DNA from: a virus
Lineage: Duplodnaviria > Caudoviricetes
Virus record (IMG/VR): IMGVR_UViG_3300031998_000011
Span: 115,397 to 179,396 of that record
Length of the DNA: 64,000 nucleotides
Direction: 5' to 3' (one strand)
Below are positions 13,051 to 42,678 of the stretch, piece after piece. A program made the translations under genes and the position numbers. Positions within the stretch are counted from its first letter, which is position 1. Each line of letters opens with the position of its first letter. The notes under the pieces are model-generated. The model saw only the letters and a program-made list of their open reading frames with translations, was not told the DNA's origin and searched no databases.

Positions 13051-15330
13051 ATGACACTGAAAGAACTCATCAAGACGGCCGCAGGCGAACAACTGGGTAA
13101 ACCAAATCAGCCTGTCTGGCAGGGTAACACCAAAATGCCAGAGCAGCAAAAGGTTAATGCGTACGGCTGGACTAACTCTGTTTACACGATGCCTGGTGCC
13201 AATGCCAGCGCAGCGGAGAAACAGGCTTGGTCCAACACTATGCGTGCCGATCTTATGCGCCAGAATCCGAATTTTGATTTCAATGACCCGCAACAGCGCT
13301 GGCAGTGGGATTGGGATGCCGCAAATGAGTTCATCAATGGTTACAGGGAGAGAACTAACGGAAAGTCCGGTTTTAGCTGGATGCCAAGTTTTCAGAATGA
13401 CCAGAGTAAATGGGCGATAAACCCTCTTCGGTGGATCACGTTCTACAAAGATCCATATGAACAGCAGCACAGTCAGGCAAACAGCAATCATCCTGTTATT
13501 TTCAATGCACAGCGCAGCCAGGTACAAGGGGCCCAACAGGATATCAAGCAGGACATCGCGGATATATCTGGTAAGTCGGTAGTTGCTGCATCATGGTCTC
13601 CATATTTCATGCCAGAAGTCATGGACTATCTGTCAGATGGCAGTTTTGGTAACTGGCAGAATGCACGTGACGTGAACATGCTCCGGCAGGAATATGCCGA
13701 TGCTCTGAGAGATGCCGATTATTCACCTGAGCAGATCGCGCAGATGCAGAATGATCTTGGTTACATCACAGGTGGTGATACTGTGCTTGGAAGATCTGCA
13801 AGAGCTGTACAGGACATGGCTCGTGAATGGTTGTTCCGTGGCAGCCTTATTAACTTGGCTACAGCCGGTGGAGGTCAGGCACTCGCAGCTACAAAACCTG
13901 TGCAGGCACTCGCTGCTCTAAAACCCGTGAAGGCGCTTGCTCATGCCTATAATGCTATTGGTGCTCCACTCAACACAGCAAATGCCGGCGCCGTGGGACG
14001 CATTGCAAAGGGCGGTATAAACGGTCTCGCGTCTTTTATACGTAATACAGTTGCAGGTTCTGTTCCTACAGCTGCTGCTTCGTATGGTGTGAGATCCCTT
14101 GCAGATTATGGGGAGAATCATGATGGTACAATTCATGATGTACTCATGACAATGGGTCTGAACACCCAGAGGCAGCAGTCAGCAGCCGCAAATTGGATGT
14201 TTGGTACGGGCGCAGAAGCTGAACGGGACTATGGTCGAGCAATCGCATATACGGAAAACGGTGAAAAGCGTTATTTCGATACACCTGATGGTAGCTCTAC
14301 ATGGCTGCCGATGTTCGACCAGAACGGAAACATAAGTCAGGATCTGAATGATTATCAGTTGTATCAGACATGGGCTGAAAAGAGCAAGCTGGACCCGAAC
14401 GATCCAGAAACACAGAAGAAATATGTACAGTGGTATACCAGAAACGGTACACTGGATTCCACCATTGTATTCACGCCTATGTTCCGAAGCATGTCACCGG
14501 AAGATCAAGTTGAATGCATGAATAACATGCTGAAGAATCGCAAGTTATGGAACTCCAAAGCAGGCGTCACGATTGACGAACTTCTGTCTGGCGATTCTCG
14601 TGCAGATATGTTTGCCAATGCTCTGCGTAACGACAAAGATGGTTCTATGCATCAGTTGTTCCAGGACTTCCTGATGGGTACTGATTCCGAGACTTTTGCC
14701 AAGTTCCTTGGCGCAAATGCAGGTTCTGGGACAGGTTCCGCGAAGAGTGCTAGTATGGACCTTATTTATAAGGAATTAGAGAACGGAATTGTCGGTCGCA
14801 TTGTAAATAATCCAAATGAGGCACCTGGTACGATCAGCGCGTTGCTCAAGCTGAAAATGGCTGAGAACTCTGGTAACATTGACACGAACTCCCAGGGTGC
14901 ACAAGTTGTGAAGAAAGCACTTATGACAGCGCTGGCTGACAAAGACACCATACGTAACATGGATCCGAACAAGCGTATGGAACTTACGGCTATGCTCTAT
15001 CGCTTGAGTAAGACACCGGGAGGCATGGAGTCGCTTGGTGATGACGGTTTGGCTATGGCAAAGCAGATTGAAGAGAATTTGCAAGAGAACCTGTGGAAAA
15101 CTGTCTGGAGCGATCCAATACATAACCTGCCTTTGGTATTCTCCATGATGACTTCTGCCGCAGGTTTTGATGGCATCTCCGAGGCGGCATCAAATCCTTG
15201 GACATTCTGGCTTGGAGCCGCTGCCTTGCTGGCCTGTGGTCTTTTGATTGGCGGTAGTGGTCTGGACGACGATGAAGATGACGAGGAAGACGAGTACGAA
15301 GTCGGTCTTCGCAGGAATCCCTATGCGTGA
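13051..15330 (+). CDS. Large putative internal virion protein with C-terminal TM and acidic tail
   Basis: Starts MTLKELIKTAA; ends FWLGAAALLACGLLIGG-DDDEDDEEDE. Confidence 0.7.
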   Translation: MTLKELIKTAAGEQLGKPNQPVWQGNTKMPEQQKVNAYGWTNSVYTMPGANASAAEKQAWSNTMRADLMRQNPNFDFNDPQQRWQWDWDAANEFINGYRERTNGKSGFSWMPSFQNDQSKWAINPLRWITFYKDPYEQQHSQANSNHPVIFNAQRSQVQGAQQDIKQDIADISGKSVVAASWSPYFMPEVMDYLSDGSFGNWQNARDVNMLRQEYADALRDADYSPEQIAQMQNDLGYITGGDTVLGRSARAVQDMAREWLFRGSLINLATAGGGQALAATKPVQALAALKPVKALAHAYNAIGAPLNTANAGAVGRIAKGGINGLASFIRNTVAGSVPTAAASYGVRSLADYGENHDGTIHDVLMTMGLNTQRQQSAAANWMFGTGAEAERDYGRAIAYTENGEKRYFDTPDGSSTWLPMFDQNGNISQDLNDYQLYQTWAEKSKLDPNDPETQKKYVQWYTRNGTLDSTIVFTPMFRSMSPEDQVECMNNMLKNRKLWNSKAGVTIDELLSGDSRADMFANALRNDKDGSMHQLFQDFLMGTDSETFAKFLGANAGSGTGSAKSASMDLIYKELENGIVGRIVNNPNEAPGTISALLKLKMAENSGNIDTNSQGAQVVKKALMTALADKDTIRNMDPNKRMELTAMLYRLSKTPGGMESLGDDGLAMAKQIEENLQENLWKTVWSDPIHNLPLVFSMMTSAAGFDGISEAASNPWTFWLGAAALLACGLLIGGSGLDDDEDDEEDEYEVGLRRNPYA

Positions 15331-15360
15331 CGCACCGGATTTTATACGAGAGGTAAACAA

Positions 15361-16191
15361 ATGAACGACAATCCGATTTCTCCAGCGCTTCAGACATACA
15401 AAGATGTCACAATCAATCCGGCTGTCAACAGCGCCGCACTTGGCACAATGGCTTTTGGTGCAGGTACGGTTGCCTGGGATCGTCTGATCGAGACAGCAAA
15501 GTCGCTGCTTCGTCGGCCTGTCTCCATGATGTCCGACATGACTCCAGAGGAGTTTGACTGGGAGATGGACGACATCAAGAAGGACAAGAAGCTGCGCTGG
15601 CTGATCCCAGGTGCACTTGGACTTGCTACAGCCGGCGGCAGTCTGGCTGCATCTTACAGACCGAACGAAGAGCACGGCGGACTGCTTGACTGGAACGGAA
15701 AGGCCAAGCCTCTTAATCAGAATGTGTGGCGCGGTTATATCATGCCAGGTTCACAGAATGTCAAGAAGGCATCGTTGGATAAGCTCGCGAACGATATGTT
15801 TGAGTACGGCGGTTATGTTCCAGAGCTTGACTTCAGCCAGATTGTGAACGTGCCCTATACCAAACAGCAGTTTTTCACCAACGACCCATTTCTGCAGAAT
15901 CAGCCTTATGTTCAGAACTTCGGTAAGTCTATCGTAATGGACGCGATGATGCGCAACGGTGCTGTCAATGTTCCTATGGGAATGATCTATGACAGTGCTG
16001 TTGATAAGTTCAAGCTGAAGTTCAGTTCCGGCGGCATCATGAGCACTGTGGCGAATACCATGCTGTCCAATGCGGCAGCTCGTCTGTTCACGACAGCTCT
16101 TGGCGCAGTGACTGGTCTGTCCAAAGAGAATCAGGACAGACTGGTGGAAGCCGGAACATGGGCTGGAGCCATTTCATCTGTCATCAGCTAA
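15361..16191 (+). CDS. Gly/Ala-rich putative membrane-inserting virion protein
   Basis: Hydrophobic Gly-rich segments; internal VKKASLDKLA. Confidence 0.7.
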   Translation: MNDNPISPALQTYKDVTINPAVNSAALGTMAFGAGTVAWDRLIETAKSLLRRPVSMMSDMTPEEFDWEMDDIKKDKKLRWLIPGALGLATAGGSLAASYRPNEEHGGLLDWNGKAKPLNQNVWRGYIMPGSQNVKKASLDKLANDMFEYGGYVPELDFSQIVNVPYTKQQFFTNDPFLQNQPYVQNFGKSIVMDAMMRNGAVNVPMGMIYDSAVDKFKLKFSSGGIMSTVANTMLSNAAARLFTTALGAVTGLSKENQDRLVEAGTWAGAISSVIS

Positions 16192-16201
16192 GGAGACTTT
16201 T

Positions 16202-16543
16202 ATGGATATTCAAACTGTAAAACAGGCGATGGAAAAGCGGGCCGGCGTTGGTCTGATGGCGGTTGCCAAGAGTGTTCTCGGCAGCCTCGGCGCTGGTTCC
16301 GACGCCATGACCAACACAGCCCTGTATCTGCTCGGTGCTGCAGCTCTGGCCGGTGGTGGTATCGGCGCATTTGGTGCTGACATCACGGCACACGGTAAGC
16401 AGGACGAGGATACGGTAAAGAAAGAGTACGAGAACGAGCGTCTGAAAGCGGATGTCGGCTATGTCGCCAGCCGTCTGGAAGACGAGTGGAATCGTTCCAA
16501 GACCGCAACCAAACCGAAAGCCGCGAGAGTTCTGAATGTCTGA
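16202..16543 (+). CDS. Glycine-zipper small protein
   Basis: MDIQTVKQAMEKRA; LLGAAALAGGGIGAFG. Confidence 0.75.
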   Translation: MDIQTVKQAMEKRAGVGLMAVAKSVLGSLGAGSDAMTNTALYLLGAAALAGGGIGAFGADITAHGKQDEDTVKKEYENERLKADVGYVASRLEDEWNRSKTATKPKAARVLNV

Positions 16544-16997
16544 CAACGCCGACGAACCGATCTGCATAAGCGCTGCACAGGCGCGACTGCTCACAGAGGA
16601 TGATCTGCCGGGTCGAGAGAAAGAAGACGAAGGCGATATCAAGCTGAGCAACAGCGACAATCTGTGGGCATACAGATCAGAGCACCAGATACAGGATGTG
16701 CAGGTCAGACAGTCTGACTGGGATCTGCCCATCCCTGATGATGAAACACTGGCCAAGGCTTTCCGCCTGCACTCCGTACCGCATTCCGAGATGTTCTGGA
16801 TGTCACCAGATGACGAAGAGTCTATGGCAAAGTACAACCAGATTCTCCAAGCCGCCTATGACGGAAAGATTATCATAGTAGACGAACAGAAACAATACGA
16901 CCAGAGCAAGGGCAAGTTTTTGGTGTGGCTCCGTTACGACGATGTCGCCTGGGAACTCCACCCGCGCTATGAGTTTATCCGAGAGGAGCGAAAATGA
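16536..16997 (+). CDS. Hypothetical protein
   Basis: 153 aa acidic ORF overlapping both neighbours. Confidence 0.7.
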   Translation: MSDNADEPICISAAQARLLTEDDLPGREKEDEGDIKLSNSDNLWAYRSEHQIQDVQVRQSDWDLPIPDDETLAKAFRLHSVPHSEMFWMSPDDEESMAKYNQILQAAYDGKIIIVDEQKQYDQSKGKFLVWLRYDDVAWELHPRYEFIREERK

Positions 16998-18016
16998 GTG
17001 GTCCAGCCGCAGCGTGGGGTTCCAGCCCACTTGGCTCTTACTGGAATACGGCGAATCCGCTGTCCCAAACCTTCCAGCTTACAGATCGTATCCCGGAAGG
17101 CTGGGTCAAGATGTTCCCAAACACAGAAGGCGGACGTCGTGCTGCCCATATCACATTCAAATCCGGCTTTGATGCTGCGCTTGGTGCAGGACTGATTGCC
17201 CTGTACCGCTATCTGTCGCATGTGAACCGCATGTCGGAACTTGCCAAGAGCGACAATCCGGCGCATGGTATGAAGTCACAGCTGTCCACGACGTTTGCCG
17301 GTTCCCTGAATCCTGAGAAGCAGAAGAAGAAAGCTGCTGTAACTGAACTTGAGCAGCCCAACATCTTCAGCAATGCGAACGTTCTCAGCTCTGCCATTCC
17401 CGTTGGGGCTGTTCTTCTGGCTACCAGCCTGGCGTACAAGGCAACCGATGACTATCTTGACAAGAAGCGCAATAAAGCGCTTGATGATGCTATCCGCAGC
17501 AAGGAGAACATCCTGAAGCGGCTTATCAAGACACGTTCAAGACTCGCCAAGGGTAATGCCACGGATCGCGAGGTTTCCACTGCTCTCGGCAGCATGAATA
17601 ATGATGATATCTACGTGAAGCAGGCCAACATGGAAAAGCATGCCAACTGGCTCACAGAGGCTATCAGTGATGTGAGTCGTGGCGGTATCAATGCTCTTGG
17701 TCTTCTTGGGTGCCTGGTTCTCGGTGCATCGGCGGTCGGCTCTTATTACTACTTCAGCAAGGGCGACGAGAACAACATTCGGTACAGAGCCATGAAGAAA
17801 GGTCTCAAGGAGTACTCCCGTGTGAAGTCCGGATTCACGCCAGTTGCTATCATTCCGACCAAGTCCCGCAAGTTCTTCGCAGAGATCGACGAGGAGACTC
17901 CGCAGCGCAAATCAAAACAGACAGAAGCAGTAACAGAACCGGCGCCTGTGAGTGTCCGGGATGAACAGCCTGTTCTGACTGAAACATATAACAAACCAAT
18001 CTCATTAACATTGTGA
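16994..18016 (+). CDS. Putative membrane-inserting virion protein (three hydrophobic segments)
   Basis: Modules separated by KKKAA and VKQANMEKHA. Confidence 0.7.
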   Translation: MSGPAAAWGSSPLGSYWNTANPLSQTFQLTDRIPEGWVKMFPNTEGGRRAAHITFKSGFDAALGAGLIALYRYLSHVNRMSELAKSDNPAHGMKSQLSTTFAGSLNPEKQKKKAAVTELEQPNIFSNANVLSSAIPVGAVLLATSLAYKATDDYLDKKRNKALDDAIRSKENILKRLIKTRSRLAKGNATDREVSTALGSMNNDDIYVKQANMEKHANWLTEAISDVSRGGINALGLLGCLVLGASAVGSYYYFSKGDENNIRYRAMKKGLKEYSRVKSGFTPVAIIPTKSRKFFAEIDEETPQRKSKQTEAVTEPAPVSVRDEQPVLTETYNKPISLTL

Positions 18017-18024
18017 GGACAATC

Positions 18025-18717
18025 ATGAATATCCAAACTGTTCATTCCAGTATGGTCAAGCGGGCGGGCGCCAAGGGCGAACTCGCCAGCAATCTCGCCC
18101 AGGCCGGTCTGGCTCAGATCCCGACCGTTGTTACCCAGATTCCTGGCGTCATCAATGGCGCCGGCAGCATCGTCGGTGCTTTCTCCAGCCCGGCTACCGA
18201 GGCTGAAGAATCCAAGTGGGACGATGGCGACAGCGAAGTGGCTGGTCTCCTTCCTGGTGTCGCCGGCTACCGCATGGCGCGTCGTCGCAAACGCCAGCTC
18301 AAGGCCGATGAAGGCGGCACTCCGCACTATTGGTCACAGGCCTTTGGCCCGCTGTCCGCTCTTCTGATTGCGTCTGGTCTCGGTGCTCTCGGCGGTGGTG
18401 TCGTCGGCGGTGCCACCAACGGATTCAAGAATGACACAAATGCTCTCATCGGCGCTGGTATCGGTGCTGGTGTCGGTGCCGGCGGTGCTGCTCTCTCCGA
18501 GCTTGGTGCTCTGATTGCGGCTGCCATCAAGCGTCGTCGCTCCAAGGAAGAGCAGAAAGCCTATGCGAACTCTAGTACCGCTTCCGAGTGGCTGGTTCCC
18601 GGCGTTGCCACGTACAATGCGTGGAAGACGATGGGTCGTGTGATCGGTGACTCCGAGGAACGCGAAGCCGCCAAGGCGAAAGAACAGGCTCCGGCTGGCG
18701 CACTTGCGACTGCGTAA
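18025..18717 (+). CDS. Glycine-zipper hairpin protein, paralog A
   Basis: MNIQTVHSSMVKRA; TPHYWSQ...KEEQKAYANS...EWLVPG. Confidence 0.75.
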   Translation: MNIQTVHSSMVKRAGAKGELASNLAQAGLAQIPTVVTQIPGVINGAGSIVGAFSSPATEAEESKWDDGDSEVAGLLPGVAGYRMARRRKRQLKADEGGTPHYWSQAFGPLSALLIASGLGALGGGVVGGATNGFKNDTNALIGAGIGAGVGAGGAALSELGALIAAAIKRRRSKEEQKAYANSSTASEWLVPGVATYNAWKTMGRVIGDSEEREAAKAKEQAPAGALATA

Positions 18718-18726
18718 GGTGTCCCG

Positions 18727-19452
18727 ATGCCAGATACCACAGGCACATTTAATAATCTGCTGAGAGCCAAGCAGAAGTTCATTTCGAACGTTCTCGACAC
18801 CGAGAAACCTGCGAAGATCTACCGTTTGGACGACTATAAGCAGATCAGGACTGCGCTGTTTGATAACGTGAAGAACGCTGTCAAGCAGCGCTTCCCCCTG
18901 TACAATGACCGGGTAACTCTGGCAATCGAAGATGTTGATTACGATGATCCAGACGAGATCGACATCCCGAAGCAGAAGCAGTGCATCCTGGAGGGTAAAT
19001 CCTGTGACCGCAGGTTGCGCGGTCGCTGGGTCCTCCGGGATGCAGCTACTGACAAGGTGCTCAGCCAGACCAAGCGTATGACTCTGATGCGCGTGCCTTA
19101 CATGACTGACCGTGGGACTTTCATTCGCAACGGTCATGAGTACGCTTTCACGAACATTATGCGTCTGGAACCTGGTGTATACACAAAGAAGCGCGATGAC
19201 GAAGTGTCTGCACAGTTCAATATTCAGAAGGGAACGGGTGCTGGCTTCAATATGTTCCTTACACCGGAGACAGGCATCTTCAAGATCAAACGAGGAACCA
19301 CCAGTTGTCCTGCTTACACAGTATTCAAGGACCTCGGTGTGACTGACGATCAGATGCAACAGGCCTGGGGTCAGGAGCTGTTCGAGAAGAACAAACGAGC
19401 AGGCACAGACGAGAAAGCTCGTCAGGCTGCTAACAAGATATACAACATGTGA
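18727..19452 (+). CDS. rpoB: RNA polymerase beta subunit, N-terminal fragment
   Basis: VPYMTDRGTFIRNGHEY...MRLEPGVY matches beta region B (IPLMTDNGTFVINGTER...HRSPGVF). Confidence 0.85.
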   Translation: MPDTTGTFNNLLRAKQKFISNVLDTEKPAKIYRLDDYKQIRTALFDNVKNAVKQRFPLYNDRVTLAIEDVDYDDPDEIDIPKQKQCILEGKSCDRRLRGRWVLRDAATDKVLSQTKRMTLMRVPYMTDRGTFIRNGHEYAFTNIMRLEPGVYTKKRDDEVSAQFNIQKGTGAGFNMFLTPETGIFKIKRGTTSCPAYTVFKDLGVTDDQMQQAWGQELFEKNKRAGTDEKARQAANKIYNM

Positions 19453-19460
19453 GGAACAAC

Positions 19461-21032
19461 ATGCAGACATATTCAGATTTCCAGAAGAAGGCCGAGCTTG
19501 GCGGTGCCGGCGAATACTTCCAGCGCCGTGAAGAGGAACTGGCCAAGTCAGAGATGGAGGGATACCGTGATGGTACCGCCGTGAAGTATCCGGGCAGCTG
19601 GACACAGACTCCTGGTACAGACTACTGGAATTTGGATGAGTCGAAGGTTCCGTCTGGGTATCATCAGGCATTCTGGCAGAAGATGGACAGCATCAACCGG
19701 AAATACAATGGAAACCTGTACAGGTCCTACAGACAGAAAGAGAATGATCCGACCGGGCAGGGTGTGACTACTGGGTCTATGGGTTACAAGATGCTTGCAC
19801 AGGAGCCGGAACCAATTATGCTCCCACCGCTGACAGTCACGGCTCATGATTACACGGCTGAGATGAACAAGGACTGGGACGAGCACATGAACCGGATTAA
19901 GAACTCCGGTCCTATGGACAATATTCCATCCACACAAGACTACATGACAAGTCGCTGGGGCAAGGATTGGATGACCAATCCATATCCGCAGCAACAGTCT
20001 GGAACCACGCAGGGACCCACTGTTCCGATGGTAAAGAACCAGTCGTACAAGGAGTTCTGTAAGAAGGCTCTGTTTGAGGATACGATTGGTCCCACTGACA
20101 GTATACTCAGTCTTCATACTGACAGCATCTTTGATGCGCCACGGCACACCGACAGCATCCTGGAACCGAAACTTGATACTACACTTAATCTTGGTAATGC
20201 ATGTCGTCCTGGCGGTTGTACAACAGCGCCAGATACTGGTTGGGTCAGTCGTAACCCAGAACTGGCTGCCGGTATTGGTACGCTCCTTCTCGGTGGCGGC
20301 GGTGTTCTTCTTTACAAACTCATGCAGGATGCAAAGAAGCAGAAACAAAAGCCGCTGGCCAAGTCTGGATCCGCTCGCAGTGATTTCTGGTACAGTGCGC
20401 TTGGTGCGCCGTTTTATGGAGCGGCATCAGGCGCTGCTGCGGCTGCATCTCTGGAACGTGAGAAAAAAGACATGGAGGAAGCCTTCAAGGGCACAGGGAA
20501 GAAACCTGGAAGTATGGCGGATCCCGCGACGGAAATCGAAGAGGAAGTCTGGGATCGTCATCCGGAATCGGCTCTTATTCCAGGTATCGGTGTGAACCGC
20601 ACGGATCGTCGCATTAAGCGTCAGCTCCTGAATGATAAAGGCAAGACCCCGCATTTCTGGTCGCAGCGCATTGGCAATCTTGCGCCACTCCTGATTCTTG
20701 CTGGTCTGGCTGGTGTTGGTGGTTATATGTATGCTGACAAGAAAGATTTGCGCATGGCGAATGGTAATAGTGCCAAAGGTATTGCAGCCGCTGCCGGCGC
20801 AGGTGCTGGATTCCTTGGTGGTGCGCTCAGTCTCGAAGCTGGTGGCGGTCTTGCCGCGTTGCTGACGCCGACTCGTACAAAGGAACAACAGAAGGCATAC
20901 GCCAATAGCCCAACTACCAAGGAATGGCTTATTCCTGGTCTCAGTTCCTATAATGAATATAAGACCTATGGCCGCATGTTCGCTGATAGTGACGAACGTG
21001 CAGCCAAACGCCGAAAGGAAGGCAAGGCATGA
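19461..21032 (+). CDS. Multi-module virion protein; C-terminal module paralogous to 18025-18717
   Basis: YSDFQKKA, internal YKEFCKKA; TPHFWSQ...KEQQKAYANS...EWLIPG. Confidence 0.75.
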   Translation: MQTYSDFQKKAELGGAGEYFQRREEELAKSEMEGYRDGTAVKYPGSWTQTPGTDYWNLDESKVPSGYHQAFWQKMDSINRKYNGNLYRSYRQKENDPTGQGVTTGSMGYKMLAQEPEPIMLPPLTVTAHDYTAEMNKDWDEHMNRIKNSGPMDNIPSTQDYMTSRWGKDWMTNPYPQQQSGTTQGPTVPMVKNQSYKEFCKKALFEDTIGPTDSILSLHTDSIFDAPRHTDSILEPKLDTTLNLGNACRPGGCTTAPDTGWVSRNPELAAGIGTLLLGGGGVLLYKLMQDAKKQKQKPLAKSGSARSDFWYSALGAPFYGAASGAAAAASLEREKKDMEEAFKGTGKKPGSMADPATEIEEEVWDRHPESALIPGIGVNRTDRRIKRQLLNDKGKTPHFWSQRIGNLAPLLILAGLAGVGGYMYADKKDLRMANGNSAKGIAAAAGAGAGFLGGALSLEAGGGLAALLTPTRTKEQQKAYANSPTTKEWLIPGLSSYNEYKTYGRMFADSDERAAKRRKEGKA

Positions 21033-22207: not shown

Positions 22208-22303
22208 CGCAACCACTAATGTAACGACAAGTAACCCTTTCCTATAAAACCAACAAAGCTATTCCAATAGCAACCAAACATACAACACAGAGGAGTCCAT
22301 ATC

Positions 22304-23050: not shown

Positions 23051-23062
23051 ACATGACATTGC

Positions 23063-23103: not shown

Positions 23104-23119
23104 AATAAGGAGAACGCAC

Positions 23120-23842: not shown

Positions 23843-23853
23843 GGAGCCGAACT

Positions 23854-35268: not shown

Positions 35269-35280
35269 CCAGGAGTTTGT

Positions 35281-36189: not shown

Positions 36190-37906
36190 GATATCTTCTT
36201 CCGATGAGCGCAAGCTGACGAACGCCATCGAAAGTGCTGCCATTCTGGCAAGCAATGACGCATCCCGTGACAGGAACCAGCTCCTTGCGGATGAACTCAA
36301 GAAAGAGGGCGTGGATTCCCGTTTCGCAAAAGTGGCGTCCTGTGCTTTCAACAAGCGTGTCACAGTGCTGACTTTCAAGAAGACGGCAGATGAGCACAAG
36401 GCTGATCCTTTCGAACTGACGGATGGGGACAAGGTCCTGGAACTGATGACTGGCGAAGCGCTGGAAAAGGCTGCGGCTCTCACTGCCGCCGATTTCGAGA
36501 TCACTGTTACCGGCGCTCCGATGCAGAAGGCAGCCTCTGCCGAGGCTCCTGCCCGTGCCTGCTTTGAGGACACCGTGGACTACGACCGGCTGGTCAAGCA
36601 CGTCGAGAACGTCATGACCAAGAACGCGGCCGCCATCTACGAGGTGCTCCAGAAGCAGCGCGATGTCGAAGCCGTTGCTGATTCTCTGAAGACGGAACTG
36701 GCTGATCACTTCATCAAGGATGCCAGCGCTTCCTATGCGTTCTCCAGTCTGATCAATCACTACGGCGACCGCTTCCAGAACGCCATCCAGGATAAGCTGC
36801 CTGAACATACGGACTGGACAAAGACTGCGGCAGACGCAATTTTGTTCAATGATCCAGTCTTCGACAAGGCCGCCAAGATGATCGAGATGCACGAAGCCAA
36901 CGAGAATCTGAAGGCGGTGCTGGACAAGTACGGCGAAGGGCTCACAGAGTTCTGCAAGTCGGCGGCCATGCTGGGAGATTTCGTCCAGAAGGCCGAGTCT
37001 GGCTTTGTCAAAATGGCGGCTCCACGTATGGCTGCGGAACTTGCTGGTGAGCTGGGTCTCACACCGGCCGCTCTGGGGAACTATGCAGTTGGCGCCATCG
37101 ACAACATGGTCAACGGTGTCGCGAATACAGCCGGTAACGCTTTCTCCAATGCCTATGCTCTGTACCAAGCTGGCAATGCGGCGCACATGGCTCCGAACGA
37201 AATCCTCGATGCAGACTTCCTGACGAAGGATCGCTACAGAGATCGTCTTCTTGGCTGGTCCGACATGACAGCTGATCCTCAGTTCGCCATGTATCCTGCC
37301 GAGCAGGTGTTCCTCGCCACACAGAAAGCGATGGACATGGATACCACACTGGAACGTCCGGACAAGCGCGAGGTGCTTCGCTCTTACGTGGCCCAGCTCC
37401 TGGCTCAGAATAATCGGCTCTCCACGGCGGATATCGCGGCTCTGGCTCAGACTCTTCGCGGTCTTACTAGTGCTGATGAACATGGTGCTCAGCAGATCGC
37501 TGTCAAGTCTGTTAAGGGCATGGATGAAACAAAAGCACCGGAGGCACCGGTTATCAAGGCTGTTGTTGAGGGTCGTCGCGAAGTCAAAGGTGAAGAAAGA
37601 GCCGGTCAGGTTCTGGACACCATCAAAGAGATGCGTGAAGACTACGAGAAAAAGACTGACAAGGCTCGTGAGTCGGAAGGCAACAATGATCGTACACAGC
37701 GCGAACGTGCGAGAGCTCTGGCTGATGCACAGAATGCTCGAAACCAGTTCCTGACGGATACCATGCATATTCAGATCAGAGCCAACCCACAGGGACAGAT
37801 TACATATTCACCGGGTCGTAACCAGCAACCTCTTACACAGGCTGATATCGACAATATCCTGGCGGCTGCCGAACGTGCCAATCTTGTTCCGGCTCTTCCG
37901 GCGTAA
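36179..37906 (+). CDS. Helical head-module protein with many K-x-A sites
   Basis: FKKTA, LEKAA, MQKAA, WTKTA, FCKSA, FVKMA. Confidence 0.7.
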   Translation: MENKISSSDERKLTNAIESAAILASNDASRDRNQLLADELKKEGVDSRFAKVASCAFNKRVTVLTFKKTADEHKADPFELTDGDKVLELMTGEALEKAAALTAADFEITVTGAPMQKAASAEAPARACFEDTVDYDRLVKHVENVMTKNAAAIYEVLQKQRDVEAVADSLKTELADHFIKDASASYAFSSLINHYGDRFQNAIQDKLPEHTDWTKTAADAILFNDPVFDKAAKMIEMHEANENLKAVLDKYGEGLTEFCKSAAMLGDFVQKAESGFVKMAAPRMAAELAGELGLTPAALGNYAVGAIDNMVNGVANTAGNAFSNAYALYQAGNAAHMAPNEILDADFLTKDRYRDRLLGWSDMTADPQFAMYPAEQVFLATQKAMDMDTTLERPDKREVLRSYVAQLLAQNNRLSTADIAALAQTLRGLTSADEHGAQQIAVKSVKGMDETKAPEAPVIKAVVEGRREVKGEERAGQVLDTIKEMREDYEKKTDKARESEGNNDRTQRERARALADAQNARNQFLTDTMHIQIRANPQGQITYSPGRNQQPLTQADIDNILAAAERANLVPALPA

Positions 37907-37918
37907 GGAGACTGTCCT

Positions 37919-39376
37919 ATGATGAAGAAAAGTTTCCTCCCTGAGTCCTTCAACTTCGATGTGCCTCCTGTTGAGATCATTGGCGTTGGCAGCAAAGGTC
38001 TGGACAAGACTGCGATGGTGAAACGTGCCAGTGCTTTCGATGATGTCATCGAGAAGCTGGAGAAGAAAGCCAATCGCACCTACCTCCATGTTATTACGAC
38101 TGGAGCCTATGAAACGTACGGCGCCAATCTGAACTCTGACGGATGGAACGGAGAGTCGTTTGAACTCAAGTTCCCGCATCCTGAGAACATGGCGAAGAAA
38201 GCGATGGTTCTGGACGGCGGCCTTTCCAAATATCATGATATGACCTATATGAAGGATGGTGCTGTGTACCAGGAACACCAGACCAAGACAGCTGGTGTTG
38301 ATCCGTCAGGTGAGATAATCGCCGCCAAGTACAACCCCATGATGAAACGTGGTGAGCTCATCATTGCAGTCGATACCGAGAAATGGGCTTCCAGGCTTCA
38401 GAAGAAAGCCAAAGGTGAGAACATCTACCTGAGCATTGGGGCGTCTGTGCCGTACGACGTGTGCAACATCTGCGGAAGAATTGCAAAGACAGCTTCCGAA
38501 CACTGCAGTCACTTCAAGCATCATCGCGGCGAAGTCTATGATTGTGGTGAGCGTGCCTGTGTTATGAACGACCATCCGGACTTCTACGACATTTCTGGTG
38601 TGAACGTGCCGGCCGACAAGATTGCGTTCGTGCTCCAGGAAGTTGGTCACGGCGACAAGCTGACAAAGACCAGCTCCCTGCACGACATCATGCAGCAGGC
38701 GACGCAGGCAGTCGGTGTCCGTCCGCCAATGGTACTCACGAAGGCCGCCATGATTCTGGGCAAGCTGGCTCGTATGGAGAAGCAGATCGAAGGTATTGTC
38801 GAAGGTGACAAGAAGCCGGACAAAGAGGCATTTGACCATGACGACGATGCCGAAAAAGATTTTGAACTTGAAGTTCAAAATTATCCTGCCGATGAGGTGA
38901 TCGACGGTGCAAACCGCAAAGGCATCCTTCTGACTCCGGGCATGCTGTTCAGACTGCTCGGTAAGGAATGCTCTGATCCAGACAATGCTCTAAAGGATTG
39001 TGACGACGAGAGTTGTGGCGATCTGTCCTGCATGATGCGTGAACTGGAGGATGACGAGGATGTCAATGACGAGCTGCTGGACGGTTCTTTCGACCAGCAT
39101 CCGCCTGTGGATCTGAACCTCGACAGCATTCTGGAGAAGTTCATTCCGATGTTCGGGATGACGGACCCTGCTGTCAATACACGGGTTATCCGCATCACAA
39201 TCGTCGGCGCTCCGAAACACGGTACTGTAGACAAGAAGGCGTCTCTGAATAAGTTCGCACAGGAAGCCCTGCGCCGGACATATGCCAGATACCTCATCAG
39301 TTTTGCTGCTCAGAACAACGAAAGTACCTGTATGAACGCCCTCATGAAAATAGCTGGAATCGGGAAACGCGGCTGA
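37919..39376 (+). CDS. Prohead maturation protease (HK97/herpes-type fold) with Zn-finger insertion
   Basis: YQEH, GEII, LSIG (catalytic Ser candidate), CNICG...CSH, FYDISGVNVPAD; directly upstream of scaffold and capsid genes. Confidence 0.7.
   Translation: MMKKSFLPESFNFDVPPVEIIGVGSKGLDKTAMVKRASAFDDVIEKLEKKANRTYLHVITTGAYETYGANLNSDGWNGESFELKFPHPENMAKKAMVLDGGLSKYHDMTYMKDGAVYQEHQTKTAGVDPSGEIIAAKYNPMMKRGELIIAVDTEKWASRLQKKAKGENIYLSIGASVPYDVCNICGRIAKTASEHCSHFKHHRGEVYDCGERACVMNDHPDFYDISGVNVPADKIAFVLQEVGHGDKLTKTSSLHDIMQQATQAVGVRPPMVLTKAAMILGKLARMEKQIEGIVEGDKKPDKEAFDHDDDAEKDFELEVQNYPADEVIDGANRKGILLTPGMLFRLLGKECSDPDNALKDCDDESCGDLSCMMRELEDDEDVNDELLDGSFDQHPPVDLNLDSILEKFIPMFGMTDPAVNTRVIRITIVGAPKHGTVDKKASLNKFAQEALRRTYARYLISFAAQNNESTCMNALMKIAGIGKRG
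38859..38881. repeat. Dispersed 23-bp palindrome, perfect copy (intragenic)
   Basis: ATTTTGAACTT-G-AAGTTCAAAAT. Confidence 0.9.
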
Positions 39377-39441
39377 TTACTTGCCGTGTTTTCATTTGAT
39401 AGAACACCAAACCCTGGATTACAACATAAAGGAATCCACTT

Positions 39442-40587
39442 ATGAGCAATCAACTCCAGACCAAGGCGAACCGCGTTGCCGAACTGCTCGCGCAGTACGG
39501 TCTCAACAAGGAAGCCAAACAGACTATCACGCACACCAATCTCCTGGCTCAGAACAATCTCGGTCGCGAGATGACCAATGAGATCCATGAGAACGAAGAA
39601 GGCGTCCAGGCCGATACTGAAGCAGCGGAGAACAAACCCACTGCCAAGATCGACGCCATCCCGAACGCCCAGAACCTGAACACCTCTGCGGAACAGGCCC
39701 TCGCCAACACCGGCAGCACGGTCGAGACCCAGGAATCCGATGGCTCCAGCGCTGAAATGCCTGCTGAACAGGCCAAGAGCGCTGCGGCGTTCGCCCAGGT
39801 CCTCAAGCAGATTCAGGACAAGAAAGCTGCCGCAAAGAAGGAAGAAGATTCCTTCATCACAGCTACTGAAGTGTTCGCCAAGTGGGCGTCTCTCGGCCCG
39901 CGTTCCACGAAGGAAGACGTCGCGGCTGCCCAGGCTTCTCTTGAGAAGCTCGCCTCTGTCAACCCGGCCTTCACCGCGACTCGTGACAACATCATCGCCA
40001 TGAAGAAGAACGCGGAAGTCGAAGAACTCGCGGCTGCCGCCGACATCTCTCCCGAAGACGCCGCTGCGGCTCTCGACGCTGCCGCTGCCGCCAATCCGGA
40101 AATGGATGCTCAGATCATGGACGAAGCCACTGGCGAAGCAGTCACTGACCTCGCCAATGCCGAACAGGAAGTCGGCGAACTGACGGAAGGCGCTGAAGCT
40201 CTTGCGGCCGGCGCTTCTGAAGTCCTCGGTACAGAGATCACATCCGACGACATTGCAGATGCTCTTGGCGATGTTGCCGACATGGCGGAAGAAATGGGCG
40301 TTGATCCCATCGACCTTATCGCTGCTGCGGCCCAGGAAATCCAGCAGGGCGATGAACCCGGTGATGATGACATGGAAGCCGCGAAGGAAATCATCGCGGC
40401 GGCTGCTGAGCAGGGTACATCCCCTGAGCAGATTATTCAGGAACTTGCGGCATCCATTGATGCCGATGAAATGGGCGGTGAAGAAGCCGCTGGCGCAGAG
40501 GAACCGATTGAGAAGGCAGCTTCGCTGCAGAAACAGTCGCAGAGTCCGCGTGTCGCCTACGTCATCGAACAGCTCAAAAACGTCTGA
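39442..40587 (+). CDS. Probable scaffolding protein
   Basis: Very acidic, Ala/Glu-rich, helical; strong codon bias; between protease and capsid; many K-x-A sites. Confidence 0.65.
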   Translation: MSNQLQTKANRVAELLAQYGLNKEAKQTITHTNLLAQNNLGREMTNEIHENEEGVQADTEAAENKPTAKIDAIPNAQNLNTSAEQALANTGSTVETQESDGSSAEMPAEQAKSAAAFAQVLKQIQDKKAAAKKEEDSFITATEVFAKWASLGPRSTKEDVAAAQASLEKLASVNPAFTATRDNIIAMKKNAEVEELAAAADISPEDAAAALDAAAAANPEMDAQIMDEATGEAVTDLANAEQEVGELTEGAEALAAGASEVLGTEITSDDIADALGDVADMAEEMGVDPIDLIAAAAQEIQQGDEPGDDDMEAAKEIIAAAAEQGTSPEQIIQELAASIDADEMGGEEAAGAEEPIEKAASLQKQSQSPRVAYVIEQLKNV

Positions 40588-40599
40588 GGAGACTGAAAC

Positions 40600-41037
40600 A
40601 TGGCAGAACAGGCAATGGAAAAGCTCGCTTCCGAGCTGATTGAACGCCTGGCCGCCGTGGAGACTGAGAACAAATCTCTGCGCAAGGTCAACGAAGATCT
40701 TCGCGCCCTGACGCAGCAGATGTCCACAGTCAAGCAGGCTTCCCAGGAAATCAAGCAGGTCGATGAGGACCTGCTTGACTCCACCTGTCAGAGTCTCGTT
40801 AAGAGCGGCGCTCTTAATGCTGATCAGGTGGAACAGGCAAAAGCGATCTTCAAGACAGACATGAATGCCGGCCTGACTGTCATTCAGAGTCTTCTTGACG
40901 AGCACGCTCAAGTAAAGACTGCTGCGGAACAGGCTTCCCTTGCGGGTGGCACTGTTGTCCACATCGGTCAAAACACACAGCGCAGTCCGGAAGATGAATG
41001 CATCGACCGCATGCGCAAAACACTCGGCCTTCATTAA
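40600..41037 (+). CDS. Coiled-coil head assembly protein (putative second scaffold)
   Basis: MEKLAS, TVKQAS, QVKTAA; heptads. Confidence 0.6.
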   Translation: MAEQAMEKLASELIERLAAVETENKSLRKVNEDLRALTQQMSTVKQASQEIKQVDEDLLDSTCQSLVKSGALNADQVEQAKAIFKTDMNAGLTVIQSLLDEHAQVKTAAEQASLAGGTVVHIGQNTQRSPEDECIDRMRKTLGLH

Positions 41038-41058
41038 ACCTACATAGGAGTTACAACA

Positions 41059-41700
41059 ATGGCTGGCTTCACACGCACCAACTTCGATCAGCAGATCAAC
41101 CACGCTGCTGTTCTGGCGCACGGAGCACACCCGAAGTATCGCGTCGAACACGACGGCGAACTCGATGCCTCCACGCCTGAGAAGAAACTCGCGAACTCCG
41201 CTATCAAGCAGGGTTCGGTGGTTCACCTGGATTCGACCACTGGCAAGTACAACATCGGCCTCGCCGCTGCTTCCAGCATCAACTTCCCGGTGCCCTTCAT
41301 CTCCCTCAAGAACGCTTTCGATCCCGATGTGACCACCGGCGTCGAGGGCGACACCCAGACCGTCGAGATCTACGGTTCCACCAACACCTTCAGCTTCCCG
41401 AATCCGCGCCGCTCCACGTTCAGCGCCGTCGGCGGCAAGATCACGGCTATCCCGATGACTGCCGGCTACGAAATCGAAACGACTGAGTTCGTCGATGGTA
41501 CTTATCACATCAACGACGCCCTCACCGCTGCGAAGACCACCAACATCGGCAAGCTGACAGTGGCTACTCAGGTTCCGTTCAAGGCCTCCGGCTCCGAACC
41601 GATCCTCGGCTTCGTCTCCCGCGTTCCTTACACGAACGACGCTTATCTCCAGAAGCGCATCGGGTTCTGGACCAACTTCATCCCGGCTGTCGGGGCCTAA
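41059..41700 (+). CDS. Probable capsid decoration/cement protein
   Basis: 213 aa beta-rich; extreme codon bias; immediately before the major capsid gene. Confidence 0.55.
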   Translation: MAGFTRTNFDQQINHAAVLAHGAHPKYRVEHDGELDASTPEKKLANSAIKQGSVVHLDSTTGKYNIGLAAASSINFPVPFISLKNAFDPDVTTGVEGDTQTVEIYGSTNTFSFPNPRRSTFSAVGGKITAIPMTAGYEIETTEFVDGTYHINDALTAAKTTNIGKLTVATQVPFKASGSEPILGFVSRVPYTNDAYLQKRIGFWTNFIPAVGA

Positions 41701-41718
41701 TCCAAGGAGGACTTCACT

Positions 41719-42678
41719 ATGGCTTGGGATCAAATCAAAGTTGCTTCCGTTTCTGAAGACATCCGCGCAAAGTTCGCCACCGGCGACAAGGACATGTGCA
41801 AGCAGGGCACGCTCGCTGCCAACGACTACTTCCGCACAGAAATCCGCTCCAACGGCATCCGTCGTCAGATCACTCCACCTGTCCAGGTCACGAAGGACAT
41901 GTTCGACCCGTCCGAGACCTCCGACATTCCGATCATCTACGCCGAGGTCGCTCCTCGCTCGTCCGGCGCCTACATGGTCTCCTTCGAGACTGGCCCGAAG
42001 AACGAGAACATCTACGGCAACAAGATCCGCATCGAACTCAACCGCATCATGACCAAGAAGTACAGCATCGACAAGATCCGTCTCGATGCCTACAAGATGC
42101 CTCTGCTTGAGATCCTCGAAGACCTGCTCCTCAAAGACATCATGGATGTCGAGGACAACGTCACCATCGGTCTCGACAAAGAAATCTGCGGTCCTCTGAA
42201 CACGGTCAACCCCTGGATGGGCTGCCGTCGCTATGTCACCTGCGGTGGCATCAGCCGCGAAGCTCTCGTGCACCTCAAGAAGGGCATGCCTGTGGCTCCT
42301 GGTCATCTCATGACCAAGAAGTTCCTCATGAACGACCTCACCTACTTCGATCTCGGCGCTCTCGACCGTACCGAAGTCGGCGGCGACATGGCTCAGGAAA
42401 TGTTCGTCAACGGCGTCACCACCTCCAAGATCCAGGGCATCGACACGGTCGTCACCATCAAGACCGACCTCATCCCGACCAAGGAAGTGTTCATCTACAC
42501 CGACCCGATGTACTACGGCGGCTTCTACGTCTACAACGACGTCACGATGGTCGTCGATGAAGTCGATGACATCTGGATGACCTTCTTCGCCCATGAGTGC
42601 GTCGGCGCCTCCGTGGCCAACAGCCCCGGCGTTGCCCGTGCGTCCCTCACCGGCACCCTCGTCGATTGGGAAGGCTAA
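41719..42678 (+). CDS. Major capsid protein
   Basis: 319 aa; very strong codon bias; AAGGAGG RBS; strong terminator after; order protease-scaffold-decoration-capsid. Confidence 0.75.
   Translation: MAWDQIKVASVSEDIRAKFATGDKDMCKQGTLAANDYFRTEIRSNGIRRQITPPVQVTKDMFDPSETSDIPIIYAEVAPRSSGAYMVSFETGPKNENIYGNKIRIELNRIMTKKYSIDKIRLDAYKMPLLEILEDLLLKDIMDVEDNVTIGLDKEICGPLNTVNPWMGCRRYVTCGGISREALVHLKKGMPVAPGHLMTKKFLMNDLTYFDLGALDRTEVGGDMAQEMFVNGVTTSKIQGIDTVVTIKTDLIPTKEVFIYTDPMYYGGFYVYNDVTMVVDEVDDIWMTFFAHECVGASVANSPGVARASLTGTLVDWEG

Follow-up and report, generated by a model that had tools for sequence, protein, structure and literature searches.

Head-assembly and head-packaged proteins of an uncultured 179-kb phage carry a common hydrophobic-x-Lys-x-Ala signal, whose full form is [L/M/I/F]-x-K-x-A-[A/S/G], and the question is what such a signal might do there. 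The first-pass annotation of the window, i.e., the 64,000-nucleotide stretch of this genome analysed here, had proposed a prohead protease with Lys-x-Ala specificity and short leaders that target proteins to the capsid. The computed evidence presented below partly supports that reading.

The K-x-A motif in the head module

K-x-A beginning at residues 1-20 was found in 13 of 24 head-module ORFs and in 6 of the 178 ORFs in the remainder of the genome (Fisher p 4.8e-10). A count against shuffled controls, as proposed in the first-pass annotation, confirmed the enrichment, since within-protein shuffles of the head module gave 3.05±1.6 such ORFs (maximum 9; 2000 shuffles); in the tail module (42784-63670), 0 of 21 ORFs had a K-x-A site in the first 20 aa. 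The extended motif [LMIFVW]-x-K-x-A-[ASG] numbered 14 copies outside the head module, or 0.32 per 1000 aa, against 9.9±3.2 in shuffles; within the module it numbered 28, or 2.89 per 1000 aa (4.1±2.1 in shuffles), a ninefold higher density. Its reversed version occurred there just 4 times and was not enriched. When every one of the 400 a-x-b patterns was ranked without preselection over the first 25 aa of 133 head-module ORFs of five genomes, K.A came first (69 of 133 ORFs vs 21.8 expected, z≈10). In the logo, the position two before Lys was occupied by L (36%), M (26%), I (6%) or F (5%), and the residue after Ala by A (24%), S (13%) or G (12%). Tandem pentads ending on Ala were also observed, e.g., LDKTA-MVKRA-S and TVKQA-MEKRA-G.

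All of the peptides quoted in the first-pass annotation, from LIKTAA at 13039 through QIKVAS at 41719, were found at their genes, among them VKQAMEKRA in 16202, MVKRA in 18013, LQKQAA in 23854 and MRKSA in 29055. Its statement that nearly all head-module proteins bear the motif was too strong, as about 16 of 24 (about two thirds) have a site; no convincing K-x-A site was seen at the N-terminus of ORFs 15361, 16536, 16994, 18727, 31140, 35281 and 41059.

Proteins bearing the motif

The features discussed below are as follows:

11168-13042, + strand: portal protein at the upstream end of the block (BLASTP vs Arash gp204 'portal protein', E 3e-48, 23% identity)
13039-15330, + strand: leader-bearing cargo-block protein, leader MTLKELIKTA-A (motif scan)
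16202-16543, + strand: Gly/Ala-rich protein, 113 aa, leader MDIQTVKQAMEKRA-G with two tandem pentads (motif scan)
18013-18717, + strand: lineage-specific protein, leader MNIQTVHSSMVKRA-G (motif scan)
19449-21032, + strand: lineage-specific protein, leader MQTYSDFQKKA (motif scan)
21029-24192, + strand: four accessory leader-bearing ORFs (21029-22207, 22304-23050, 23120-23842, 23854-24192)
24294-29018, + strand: virion-type multisubunit RNAP, β + β' N-terminal fusion, 1574 aa (Pfam Rpb2_6 1.2e-55, Rpb1_2 4.6e-27)
29055-30020, + strand: leader-bearing ORF, leader MPYIPYSQFMRKSA-V (site kept in 4/4 relatives)
30024-31130, + strand: leader-bearing ORF, leader MEQGVIKQA-A (motif scan)
31140-32987, + strand: RNAP β' C-terminal piece, 615 aa (Pfam Rpb1_5 2.8e-15)
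32998-35268, + strand: core protein, 756 aa, leader MKSLIVRNGLMTKNA-G, 12 K-x-A sites (motif scan, relatives)
36179-37906, + strand: core protein, 575 aa (alignment of five genomes)
37919-39376, + strand: prohead protease, 485 aa (fold match to T4 gp21, AF2 model)
39442-40587, + strand: scaffold-like protein, 381 aa, 21.5% Ala, 8 K-x-A (between protease and capsid genes)
40600-41037, + strand: 145-aa protein, leader MAEQAMEKLA-S (motif scan)
41719-42678, + strand: major capsid protein, 319 aa (phrog_2522 major head protein, E 3.9e-9)

The true start of ORF 13039 is likely 13051, and a leader of the same type stands on two G002 proteins (MTLGTLIKLA and MTLNELIKTA). ORFs 18013 and 19449 likely start at 18025 and 19461, respectively; the former lacks an orthologue in relatives G002-G005 and is paralogous (43% identity) to the C-terminal domain of 19449, a protein that contains an internal leader-like second copy (SYKEFCKKA, aa 199-207). 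The accessory ORFs bear LIKQA-A (21029), AVKRA/FNKNA-A (22304), MVKVA/LQKKA-A (23120) and MAYMTYREFLQKQA-A (23854). The MEKRA site of 16202 is kept in 3/3 relatives, and the leader of 40600 has counterparts in G002 (MADQAMEKLA-N) and G004 (...DELTKLA-S). PTKTA-A, the leader site of the RNAP fusion (aa 26-31; nt 24375-24383), is kept in 3/4 relatives. No conserved N-terminal site was found in the β' C-terminal piece, whose MTKMA (aa 35-39) recurs in 0/4 relatives, nor any conserved motif in the portal protein, where two of three K-x-A copies are kept in 0/4 relatives and the third (DIKNA, aa 207) in 2/4.

Most of the protein bodies behind the leaders are mutually non-homologous. Across the five genomes, leaders were most frequent on lineage-specific head ORFs, located between portal and protease (38 of 53), and were carried by 31 of 80 ORFs of the core. 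G003 has an 11-kb insertion encoding lipoprotein-like signal peptides that is devoid of leaders, and two genes beyond the head module do have one. Some leaders of this phage group (MTYREFLQKQA, MQTYSDFQKKA, MTYAEFEKQA) are T4-like, the TYxEF-type pattern being present in 10 of 133 ORFs vs 0.42 expected; the Y-x-[DEQ]-F-x2-3-K-x-A leader noticed in the first reading was recovered in two copies in 19449 and one each in 23854 and 29055.

Within the window, the motif clusters in the protease and in propeptide-like stretches of ORFs 32998, 36179 and 39442, the latter three having 12, 10 and 8 K-x-A sites, in line with the recurrence described earlier. In 32998 (12 copies vs 5.3 expected, z 3.2), which includes the previously quoted MTKNA, 11 of 12 sites have a hydrophobic residue two before Lys, the exception being SLKEAA with Ser. 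The ten Φ-x-K-x-A-[AS] sites of 36179 lie in the N-terminal ~290 aa with a spacing of 15-35 aa, and the conserved C-terminal half has no such sites; in the alignment of five genomes, the K-x-A columns are conserved amid 30-60% overall identity. ORF 39442, whose first site is LNKEA (aa 21-25), retains 8/8 sites in at least 2/4 relatives and 6/8 in 4/4. It gave no PHROG or Pfam match, and its putative scaffold role is suggested solely by gene position and composition. The capsid protein has QIKVA-S at aa 5-10 (K-V-A encoded by nt 41737-41745), with the K-x-A retained in 3/4 relatives; around aa 27, G003-G005, Arash and D69 have a further conserved site, [LMV]-x-K-x-A-G, but this phage reads K-Q-G there.

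The prohead protease

The first-pass annotation had taken ORF 37919 for the protease and singled out the Ser of 'LSIG' (Ser172), and the predicted structure agrees with a protease. For the AF2 model (mean pLDDT 88; Foldseek probability 0.97), the best solved match was T4 gp21 (5jbl_A; Z 11.5, rmsd 3.2 Å over 149 aa), and the assemblins of VZV (Z 7.4) and HCMV (Z 5.2) matched as well. Ser172, His120 and Asp224 do not vary among 97 sequences with identities as low as 24%. At the sequence level, there was no match to curated protease families and no similarity to gp21 (hhalign probability 0.3%).

The protein comprises an N-terminal segment, a protease domain to about aa 232, a disordered linker (233-267) and a helical C-terminal domain, and contains 15 K-x-A copies vs 3.6 expected (z 6.2). 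The N-terminal segment bears the tandem sites LDKTA (30-32) and MVKRA (35-37), K35 and A37 being at least 90% conserved in the same 97 sequences, as is K-R-A near residue 35 across a family with 3,259 cluster representatives; the C-terminal domain has a conserved KKA-S site at aa 439-442. K-x-A-S is kept within indel-rich linkers (columns ~250 and ~490 of alignment A1) that are disordered or of low confidence in the model. Most relatives have a Φ-x-K-V-A-S site in the linker; in the protease of this window, the linker K-V-A-S is missing. Residues 1-30 show conservation, with an invariant K4; the model places them within the fold, and they align with gp21 from residue 4 on, so they are not a simple disposable tag. 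Cutting is unlikely at the many K-x-A copies that fall inside folded domains of the protease core and RNAP; thus, the motif by itself cannot suffice for cutting.

Conservation in relatives and cultured phages

The motif columns hold in relatives down to 43% protease identity, while their surroundings drift. K.A column pairs are kept in 50.4% of cases vs 26.5% for all pairs (rank 2nd of 166), and Lys is retained in 66% within the motif vs 46% elsewhere. For 36179, 39442, 32998 and the leaders, most sites recur in 3-4 of 4 relatives. Some lineages have lost sites: the capsid protein of G005 has Q-I-A-A, and the RNAP of G004 has K-T-V.

Cultured carriers of proteases of the ORF 37919 family (26-30% identity) are Salmonella phage Arash (OQ632216), the Vibrio phages D69/D148/D181 and, as a farther relative, Bacillus phage G (gp19), all with Φ-x-K-x-A-[AS] sites. 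In Arash and the Vibrio phages, the genes are arranged as in our phage, running from portal through RNAP fusion, cargo, protease and scaffold-like protein to capsid protein. The scaffold-like ORF of D69 has 10 sites, nine of which are [LMI]-x-K-x-A-[AS]; the motif is found on gp220-gp223 and the capsid protein of Arash, and on gp19 and the portal of phage G. Arash virions contain the RNAP, its homologue gp206 being the most detected protein in virion mass spectrometry (PMC10585845). Unlike in our phage, N-terminal sites of Arash and D69 lie further in, around residues 21-32, with fewer short leaders on accessory proteins within the regions compared.

Comparison with known maturation systems

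The T4 capsid-targeting sequence is MKTYQEFIAE (PMC8442874); its targeting function relies on Tyr at residue 4 and Phe at residue 7, and residues 8 and 10 are required for processing (PMC9026906). Cleavage motifs are L/I-x-E in T4 and A-x-E in φKZ/SPN3US (PMC9026906, PMC10052503). Beyond the protease fold (Z 11.5), T4 and our phage both place leaders of ~10 residues, ending in a protease motif (a putative one in our phage), on unrelated, poorly conserved packaged proteins (IPI-III and Alt in T4), some of ours having T-Y-x-E/D-F in common with T4; both have a many-site scaffold (putative in our phage), and both proteases have sites of their own. The alternating P5/P3/P1 of Φ-x-K-x-A would fit the P3-x-P1 geometry of L/I-x-E and of the φKZ/SPN3US A-x-E. 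However, P1 would be Ala, P3 Lys and P5 hydrophobic here, in contrast to P1 Glu and P3 Leu/Ile in T4. ORF 37919 is also 485 aa long, its domain interrupted by a Cys/His cluster and its C-terminal 220 aa forming a helical domain, and the capsid protein is small (319 aa) and not gp23-like.

With φKZ gp175 and SPN3US gp245 (S/A/G-x-E↓), the possible analogy lies in many processed head proteins and redundant multi-site propeptides. Those phages likewise have a multisubunit virion RNAP among the head genes and a large packaged-protein bolus (their inner-body/ejection proteins), and the Ser preference at P1' is in common with SPN3US. They differ in having Glu rather than Ala at P1; here, the β and β' N-terminal parts of RNAP are fused in one 1574-aa protein, and the genomes (164-192 kb) show no sequence relation.

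Herpesvirus assemblin cleaves at (V/L)-x-A↓S, after Ala and with Ser/Ala at P1'. For instance, PrV assemblin ends at Ala225 (PMC4498786). This resembles the predicted K-x-A↓ site, and the order of protease domain, linker and C-terminal assembly domain is shared along with the fold; the linker Φ-x-K-V-A-S site of most relatives, missing in the copy of this window, adds to the likeness. Unlike in herpesviruses, P3 would be Lys rather than Val/Leu, and the scaffold is a separate gene, not nested in that of the protease.

Proposed role of the motif and its alternatives

Taken together, we consider it probable that ORF 37919 recognises and cuts Φ-x-K-x-A↓(A/S/G), where Φ would mostly be Leu or Met, with leaders acting like T4 capsid-targeting sequences. 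With the substrate strand extended, P5, P3 and P1 would share a face, and the cut would come after Ala. The protease, scaffold-like protein, capsid protein, virion RNAP and a variable cargo set might co-assemble in the prohead, the presumed cargo and RNAP genes sitting between those of the portal and the protease. N-terminal leaders of 9-15 residues would help load cargo, as in T4, and then be taken off by the activated protease. Multi-site regions (the N-terminal half of 36179, 32998, 39442) would be chopped to small peptides that exit the head, and the protease might process itself at its N-terminal tandem sites and flexible linkers. Weighing against this scenario are the many K-x-A copies in folded domains, the conserved residues 1-30 of the protease, the loss of sites in some lineages, the lack of a sequence-level match to curated protease families, and the virion mass spectrometry of Arash described next.

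A less favoured scenario, to which we give a small chance, is that the motif serves in assembly or targeting by being bound and is left uncut, e.g., as a short amphipathic element docking to the scaffold, the portal or the C-terminal domain of the protease; virion proteins would then keep their N-termini. Virion mass spectrometry of Arash speaks for it: gp206, gp221, gp223 and gp224 reached 100% coverage, several of the fully covered proteins being motif-bearing, so putative propeptides would be included. That preparation probably contained unprocessed precursors, because 116 of 272 proteins were detected. Some copies also fall in predicted helices (K282-L-A within H273-295 of the protease model), and the protease N-terminal segment is conserved and modelled inside the fold. 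However, the i, i+2, i+4 pattern, the Ala-ending tandem pentads and the small residue after Ala look like a protease site rather than helical docking, and 10-12 copies along propeptide-like regions resemble the redundant cleavage of φKZ/SPN3US (PMC9026906, PMC10052503). Sites are also kept in disordered linkers of the protease, and a gene for a gp21-fold protease is present in every relative.

It seems far less plausible that a host protease, not the phage enzyme, cuts these sites. A precedent is Staphylococcus phage 80α, where the host protease Prp cuts off capsid and scaffold leaders that imitate ribosomal protein L27; short N-terminal leaders on our capsid and scaffold-like proteins recall this case, and the specificity of ORF 37919 is only predicted. 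Nevertheless, the motif is conserved across phages with hosts as unlike as Salmonella, Vibrio and Bacillus-type (phage G), co-varies with the occurrence of the ORF 37919 family, and has its best-conserved copies in the phage protease itself. Finally, we find it scarcely credible that the motif has no function, with leaders stemming from recent paralogue duplication and K-x-A from Lys/Ala-rich composition: some leader bearers are indeed paralogues (18013 and the 19449 C-terminus) and head proteins are rich in Ala (up to about 21%), but this is already contradicted by composition-preserving shuffles (3.1 vs 13 early sites, 4.1 vs 28 extended motifs), the unenriched reversed motif, the non-homology of most bodies behind leaders, and site columns that hold where protease identity is 43% and, in cultured phages, 27-30%.

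We return to cleavage by ORF 37919 as the preferred scenario: if Φ-x-K-x-A is a true cutting site, it would represent a new specificity for a T4-type capsid-maturation protease.

Organization of the head module

The window covers the final 64 kb of the 179,396-bp IMG/VR virus record, and all of its convincing genes lie on the + strand. The features on which the analysis turns are listed below, ORFs being named by their start coordinates in the window.

11168, + strand: portal; its homologue in Salmonella phage Arash is annotated as such (E 3e-48)
Between portal 11168 and protease 37919, + strand: cargo block of ~25 kb, ORFs mostly without annotation
24294, + strand: fusion of RNAP β with the N-terminal part of β' (Rpb2_6/Rpb1_1/Rpb1_2), with a conserved leader site
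31140, + strand: C-terminal piece of RNAP β' (Rpb1_5)
37919, + strand: protease candidate, gp21-like fold in its structural model
39442, + strand: Ala-rich scaffold-like ORF directly after the protease; two small ORFs then precede the capsid gene
41719, + strand: major capsid protein (major-head PHROG match), with tail genes downstream

The protease gene sits in the head-assembly module beside the scaffold-like and capsid genes, and the same order of portal, cargo and RNAP, protease, scaffold-like and capsid genes was found in four related IMG/VR genomes (G002–G005) and in Arash. Five related genomes of 164–192 kb were located in IMG/VR and the head modules of four were compared; their proteases share 71, 58, 58 and 43% identity with the window copy, G005 being the most distant. 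In this last genome (IMGVR_UViG_3300045988_176357, loci L014–L015) TAG is a sense codon, with 29 in-frame copies in the portal match and one in the capsid match; the ORFs of G005 stay open only with TAG translated, and table 15 was used for it.

Database annotation of the module was sparse. Megablast of 36179–42678 against GenBank phages gave zero matches, Pfam and PHROG searches with 20 head-module proteins returned RNAP domains, a major-head PHROG, a PHROG lacking a function annotation and nothing else, and the ESM Atlas gave no usable matches for 32998 and 36179, two core proteins with multiple motif sites (Atlas models with pLDDT of 0.33 and 0.40).

A Lys-x-Ala motif marks head-module proteins

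The first-pass annotation had quoted a series of K-x-A peptides from the head module and had named a count against composition-shuffled controls as one check. All of the quoted peptides were found, and the head-module enrichment stood well above the shuffles. K-x-A starting in residues 1–20 occurs in 13 of the 24 ORFs at 13039–41719 versus 6 of the genome's other 178 ORFs (Fisher p 4.8e-10); per-protein shuffling gave 3.05 ± 1.6 early K-x-A, with a maximum of 9 across 2000 shuffles, and early sites are absent from all 21 tail-module ORFs. Total K-x-A counts were likewise raised over composition shuffles in the protease (15 versus 3.6 expected, z 6.2) and in 32998 (12 versus 5.3), and they exceeded the shuffled expectation also in 23120, 29055, the RNAP fusion and the scaffold-like ORF.

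The neighbourhood of the motif is just as biased. Two residues before Lys, L (36%) and M (26%) prevail over their backgrounds of 7.8% and 3.4%, followed by I (6%) and F (5%), and the residue following Ala is A, S or G in 24, 13 and 12% of cases, respectively. Sites of the extended form [LMIFVW]-x-K-x-A-[ASG] number 28 in the head module, a density of 2.89 per 1000 aa (4.1 ± 2.1 sites in shuffles), and 14 outside it, at 0.32 per 1000 aa (9.9 ± 3.2 sites in shuffles). The head module has four copies of the reversed motif, and 16 head ORFs of this genome have a site inside aa 7–37.

Codon bias at translation initiation was rejected as an origin of such a pattern, for the Lys lies at residues 7–16 and the motif is also repeated internally. 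Recognition by signal peptidase I (A-x-A) was rejected as well, since the short N-terminal leaders bearing the motif contain no hydrophobic core.

Far from the module, ~101 kb upstream of the window, there is a 310-aa ORF (positions 14311–15243 of the same genome) with eight K-x-A versus 2.7 expected (z 3.6), including four full Φ-x-K-x-A-S sites, namely LEKRAS, LTKEAS, LLKEAS and IEKVAS.

The protease candidate

According to its AF2 model (mean pLDDT 88), ORF 37919 has the fold of prohead serine proteases of the gp21, HK97 and assemblin type. Residues 1–230 match T4 gp21 (5jbl_A) with Z 11.5 and an rmsd of 3.2 Å over 149 of 165 residues, the Foldseek probability for 5jbl is 0.97, the VZV and HCMV proteases match with Z 7.4 and 5.2, and many 'prohead protease' models in BFVD match at E ≤ 1e-4. 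Sequence searches gave little: Pfam, S77/S78-type models included, returned nothing at E ≤ 0.01, the single PHROG match (phrog_16951) has no function annotation, and the protease-family profile retrieved no protease among PDB sequences, its matches there being spurious ones to designed coiled coils whose repeats are of the KIAWLLKKIAQG type. The family is tied to gp21 by structure only, since comparing its profile with the T4 gp21 sequence in hhalign gave nothing (probability 0.3%).

The family is a large one, with 127 close cluster representatives in the 90% collection and, among 50% identity representatives, 3,259 at E ≤ 1e-3 and 1,098 at E ≤ 1e-30. In a deep alignment of 97 sequences, with identity down to 24%, the LSIG serine singled out in the first-pass annotation (Ser172) is invariant together with His120, Asp224 and Ser226, and H57, H106 and H198 are conserved in at least 90% of sequences, these residues being only candidates for a catalytic assignment. 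D74, E146 and D180 are further acidic residues that are invariant. The protease domain also contains a CxxC...CxH cluster (C182, C185, C196 and H198; aa 182–198, window 38462–38512), in which two residues (C185, C196) are invariant and the other two (C182, H198) at least 90% conserved in the same alignment. The cluster resembles an inserted zinc-binding site, to which H198 may contribute rather than to the catalytic set.

The protease itself carries the motif. A site [LMF]-x-K-[RIKQ]-A-[AS] near residue 35 is at least 90% conserved across the whole family, and in the closer alignment K-x-A-S is retained in two indel-rich linkers, both disordered or of low confidence in the AF2 model. The first, behind the protease domain, reads FVLRKVAS-G in relatives and is missing from the window copy; the second has KKAS near residue 439. 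A nested protease–scaffold pair of the herpes or lambda type was ruled out, the C-terminal helical domain being unlike the scaffold-like protein (no similarity in BLASTP).

Several long homologues of the protease (P0009, P0029, P0030, P0034, P0037, P0038 and P0073; 612–884 aa) contain Hint/intein domains (PF13403, PF07591, PF14890). The RNAP fusion has a weak Intein_splicing match (E 0.008) at window 25380–26201 (aa 363–636), and its orthologues in G002, G003 and G005 are 500–1080 aa longer. The protease homologues and the longer RNAP orthologues suggest that inteins are frequent in head-module genes of these phages.

Conservation of the motif in related genomes

When all 400 a-x-b patterns were counted in the first 25 residues of 133 head-module ORFs from five genomes, K.A ranked first, with 69 ORFs versus 21.8 expected (z≈10). 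Also high were M.K and L.K, both portions of the same motif, and x-x-E patterns were absent from the enriched ones. In orthologue alignments against three distant genomes, K.A column pairs were kept in 50.4% of cases versus 26.5% for all pairs (2nd of 166), and the motif Lys and Ala were kept in 66% and 65% versus 46% for other Lys and Ala.

Retention follows the individual proteins. The N-terminal 290 residues of 36179 keep about ten Φ-x-K-x-A-[AS] columns at an identity of 30–60%, and the C-terminal half, better conserved, has zero such sites. Sites in 39442, in 32998 and in the leaders are mostly retained in three or four of the four relatives; of three K-x-A copies in the portal, two are retained in none of them and one in two. 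As for the capsid protein, G003–G005, Arash and Vibrio phage D69 share a conserved [LMV]-x-K-x-A-G near residue 27; in the window capsid (41719–42678), aa 24–30 are changed to M-C-K-Q-G-T, and an extra site is present at residues 7–9.

Leaders and their putative cargo

Across the five genomes, an early site was found in 38 of 53 lineage-specific head ORFs (those with no orthologues in two other lineages) versus 31 of 80 core ORFs. The portable leaders are 9–15 residues long, and the protein bodies behind them are not homologous. Three leader classes span protein families: MNIQTV...M-x-K-R-A-G, M-T-L-x-E-L-I-K-T-A-A and M-(x)-T-Y-x-[EDQ]-[FAY]-...K-x-A, the last being found in 10 of 133 ORFs versus 0.42 expected; MTLKELIKTA-A, MNIQTVHSSMVKRA-G and MTYREFLQKQA-A are examples. 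The T-Y class, part of which has a T-Y-x-E-F core, resembles the capsid-targeting sequence of T4, MKTYQEFIAE (PMC8442874), in which targeting is governed by residues 4 and 7 (Tyr and Phe) and processing by residues 8 and 10 (PMC9026906).

Beyond the head module, MNIQTV-type leaders open two further ORFs, 105345–106124 and 109959–110690 of this genome, which start with MNVRTVQHSMLKRA-G and MNIQTVQQALFKYA-S, lie 10 kb and 5.4 kb ahead of the window and are candidates for additional packaged proteins.

ORF 19449–21032 repeats a leader-like sequence internally (SYKEFCKKA, aa 199–207) and has a C-terminal domain (aa 346–524) with 43% identity to ORF 18013; it may be a polyprotein cut into two modules. 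In G003, an ~11-kb insertion (stitched coordinates 10526–21931, L009–L010) interrupts the cargo block and contains a 1798-aa ORF besides several ORFs whose signal peptides are lipoprotein-like (MKKLLIGLCALCALAVSA...); most of these ORFs have no K-x-A leader, and a 186-aa ORF in this range, starting with MIWSQLKTAA, has one.

Cultured relatives

By tblastn, the protease family extends to Arash (27% identity), to Vibrio phages D69, D148 and D181 (30%) and, as a weak match, to gp19 of Bacillus phage G. The motif accompanies it: Arash gp222 has LTKQA-A at aa 28–33, the Arash capsid protein LVKEA-G at aa 25–30, and gp220, gp221 and gp223 carry the motif as well. Nine of the ten sites in the D69 scaffold-like ORF are [LMI]-x-K-x-A-[AS], and the sites of phage G are LVKTA-A, LEKVA-S and LLKIA-S (gp19) and MAKQA-A (portal).

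Virion presence of RNAP is known only from the distant relative Arash, whose RNAP subunits are among the most abundant of the 116 proteins detected in its virion preparation (PMC10585845). Coverage in that mass spectrometry reaches 100% for several motif-bearing proteins, and peptide-level data are absent from the paper and its supplements; given at protein level, it therefore neither proves nor excludes processing (PMC10585845). The clade described by Weinheimer and Aylward in 2020 is probably a separate lineage from these phages, since it has capsid proteins of the T4 gp23 type (PMC7481178).

A proposed cleavage and targeting code

We propose that ORF 37919 would cut Φ-x-K-x-A↓(A/S/G), with P5, P3 and P1 sharing one face of an extended strand. 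The scissile bond is placed after Ala because the tandem five-residue units finish on Ala, the following residue is small, and the new N-termini would mostly be Ala, Ser or Gly, which are stabilising in bacteria. The same position fits the registers of T4 (L/I-x-E↓) and of φKZ and SPN3US (A-x-E↓) (PMC9026906, PMC10052503). By analogy, leaders would be removed, multi-site regions degraded, and the protease would process itself. The leaders may also target cargo into the capsid, a role that we infer because they are spread over unrelated cargo and include a T4-like class.

Such a system would work like the head maturation of T4 and φKZ, with an enzyme of their fold. As in T4, unrelated proteins begin with a short leader that closes with the (here predicted) cleavage motif; T4 cleaves L/I-x-E, and the motif here is [LM]-x-K-x-A-[ASG]. 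Multisubunit RNAP genes (24294, 31140) lie among the head genes, and their products may be packaged as in φKZ. To our knowledge, prohead-protease specificities have been established experimentally for a few groups only, namely T4 (L/I-x-E), φKZ and SPN3US (A/S/G-x-E) and HK97, and the Lys-x-Ala specificity predicted from our sequences is unlike every prohead-protease motif that we found in the literature. Herpesvirus assemblin cuts (V/L)-x-A↓S, and one such cut, at the release site, separates its protease domain from the assembly domain. The small P1 and P1' predicted here would fit this Ala↓Ser rule, with Lys at P3 as the difference, and most relatives have Φ-x-K-V-A-S in the linker behind the protease domain, where the window protein has VLQEVGH.

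Overall, we might suggest, as a tentative reading to which we give a little less than an even chance, that Lys(P3)-x-Ala(P1)↓small, nearer to herpes Ala↓Ser than to phage x-x-Glu, is the specificity of a very large, uncharacterised clade of gp21-fold proteases (more than 3,000 clusters at 50% identity, with Arash, Vibrio D69 and, as a remote member, phage G among its cultured phages), and that the portable leaders represent an ancient cargo-loading code. The idea is directly testable in cultured members (Arash and phages of the Vibrio D69 type) and with the published Arash virion data. If true, the Lys-x-Ala rule would be a new specificity for the gp21/assemblin fold, resembling the herpesvirus one, and would make mature virion proteins and packaged or injected cargo, including a virion RNAP, predictable from sequence. 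It would apply to widespread 160–190-kb phages of gut, rumen and marine sources and would offer a short candidate tag with which foreign proteins could be loaded into capsids, as with the T4 targeting sequence.
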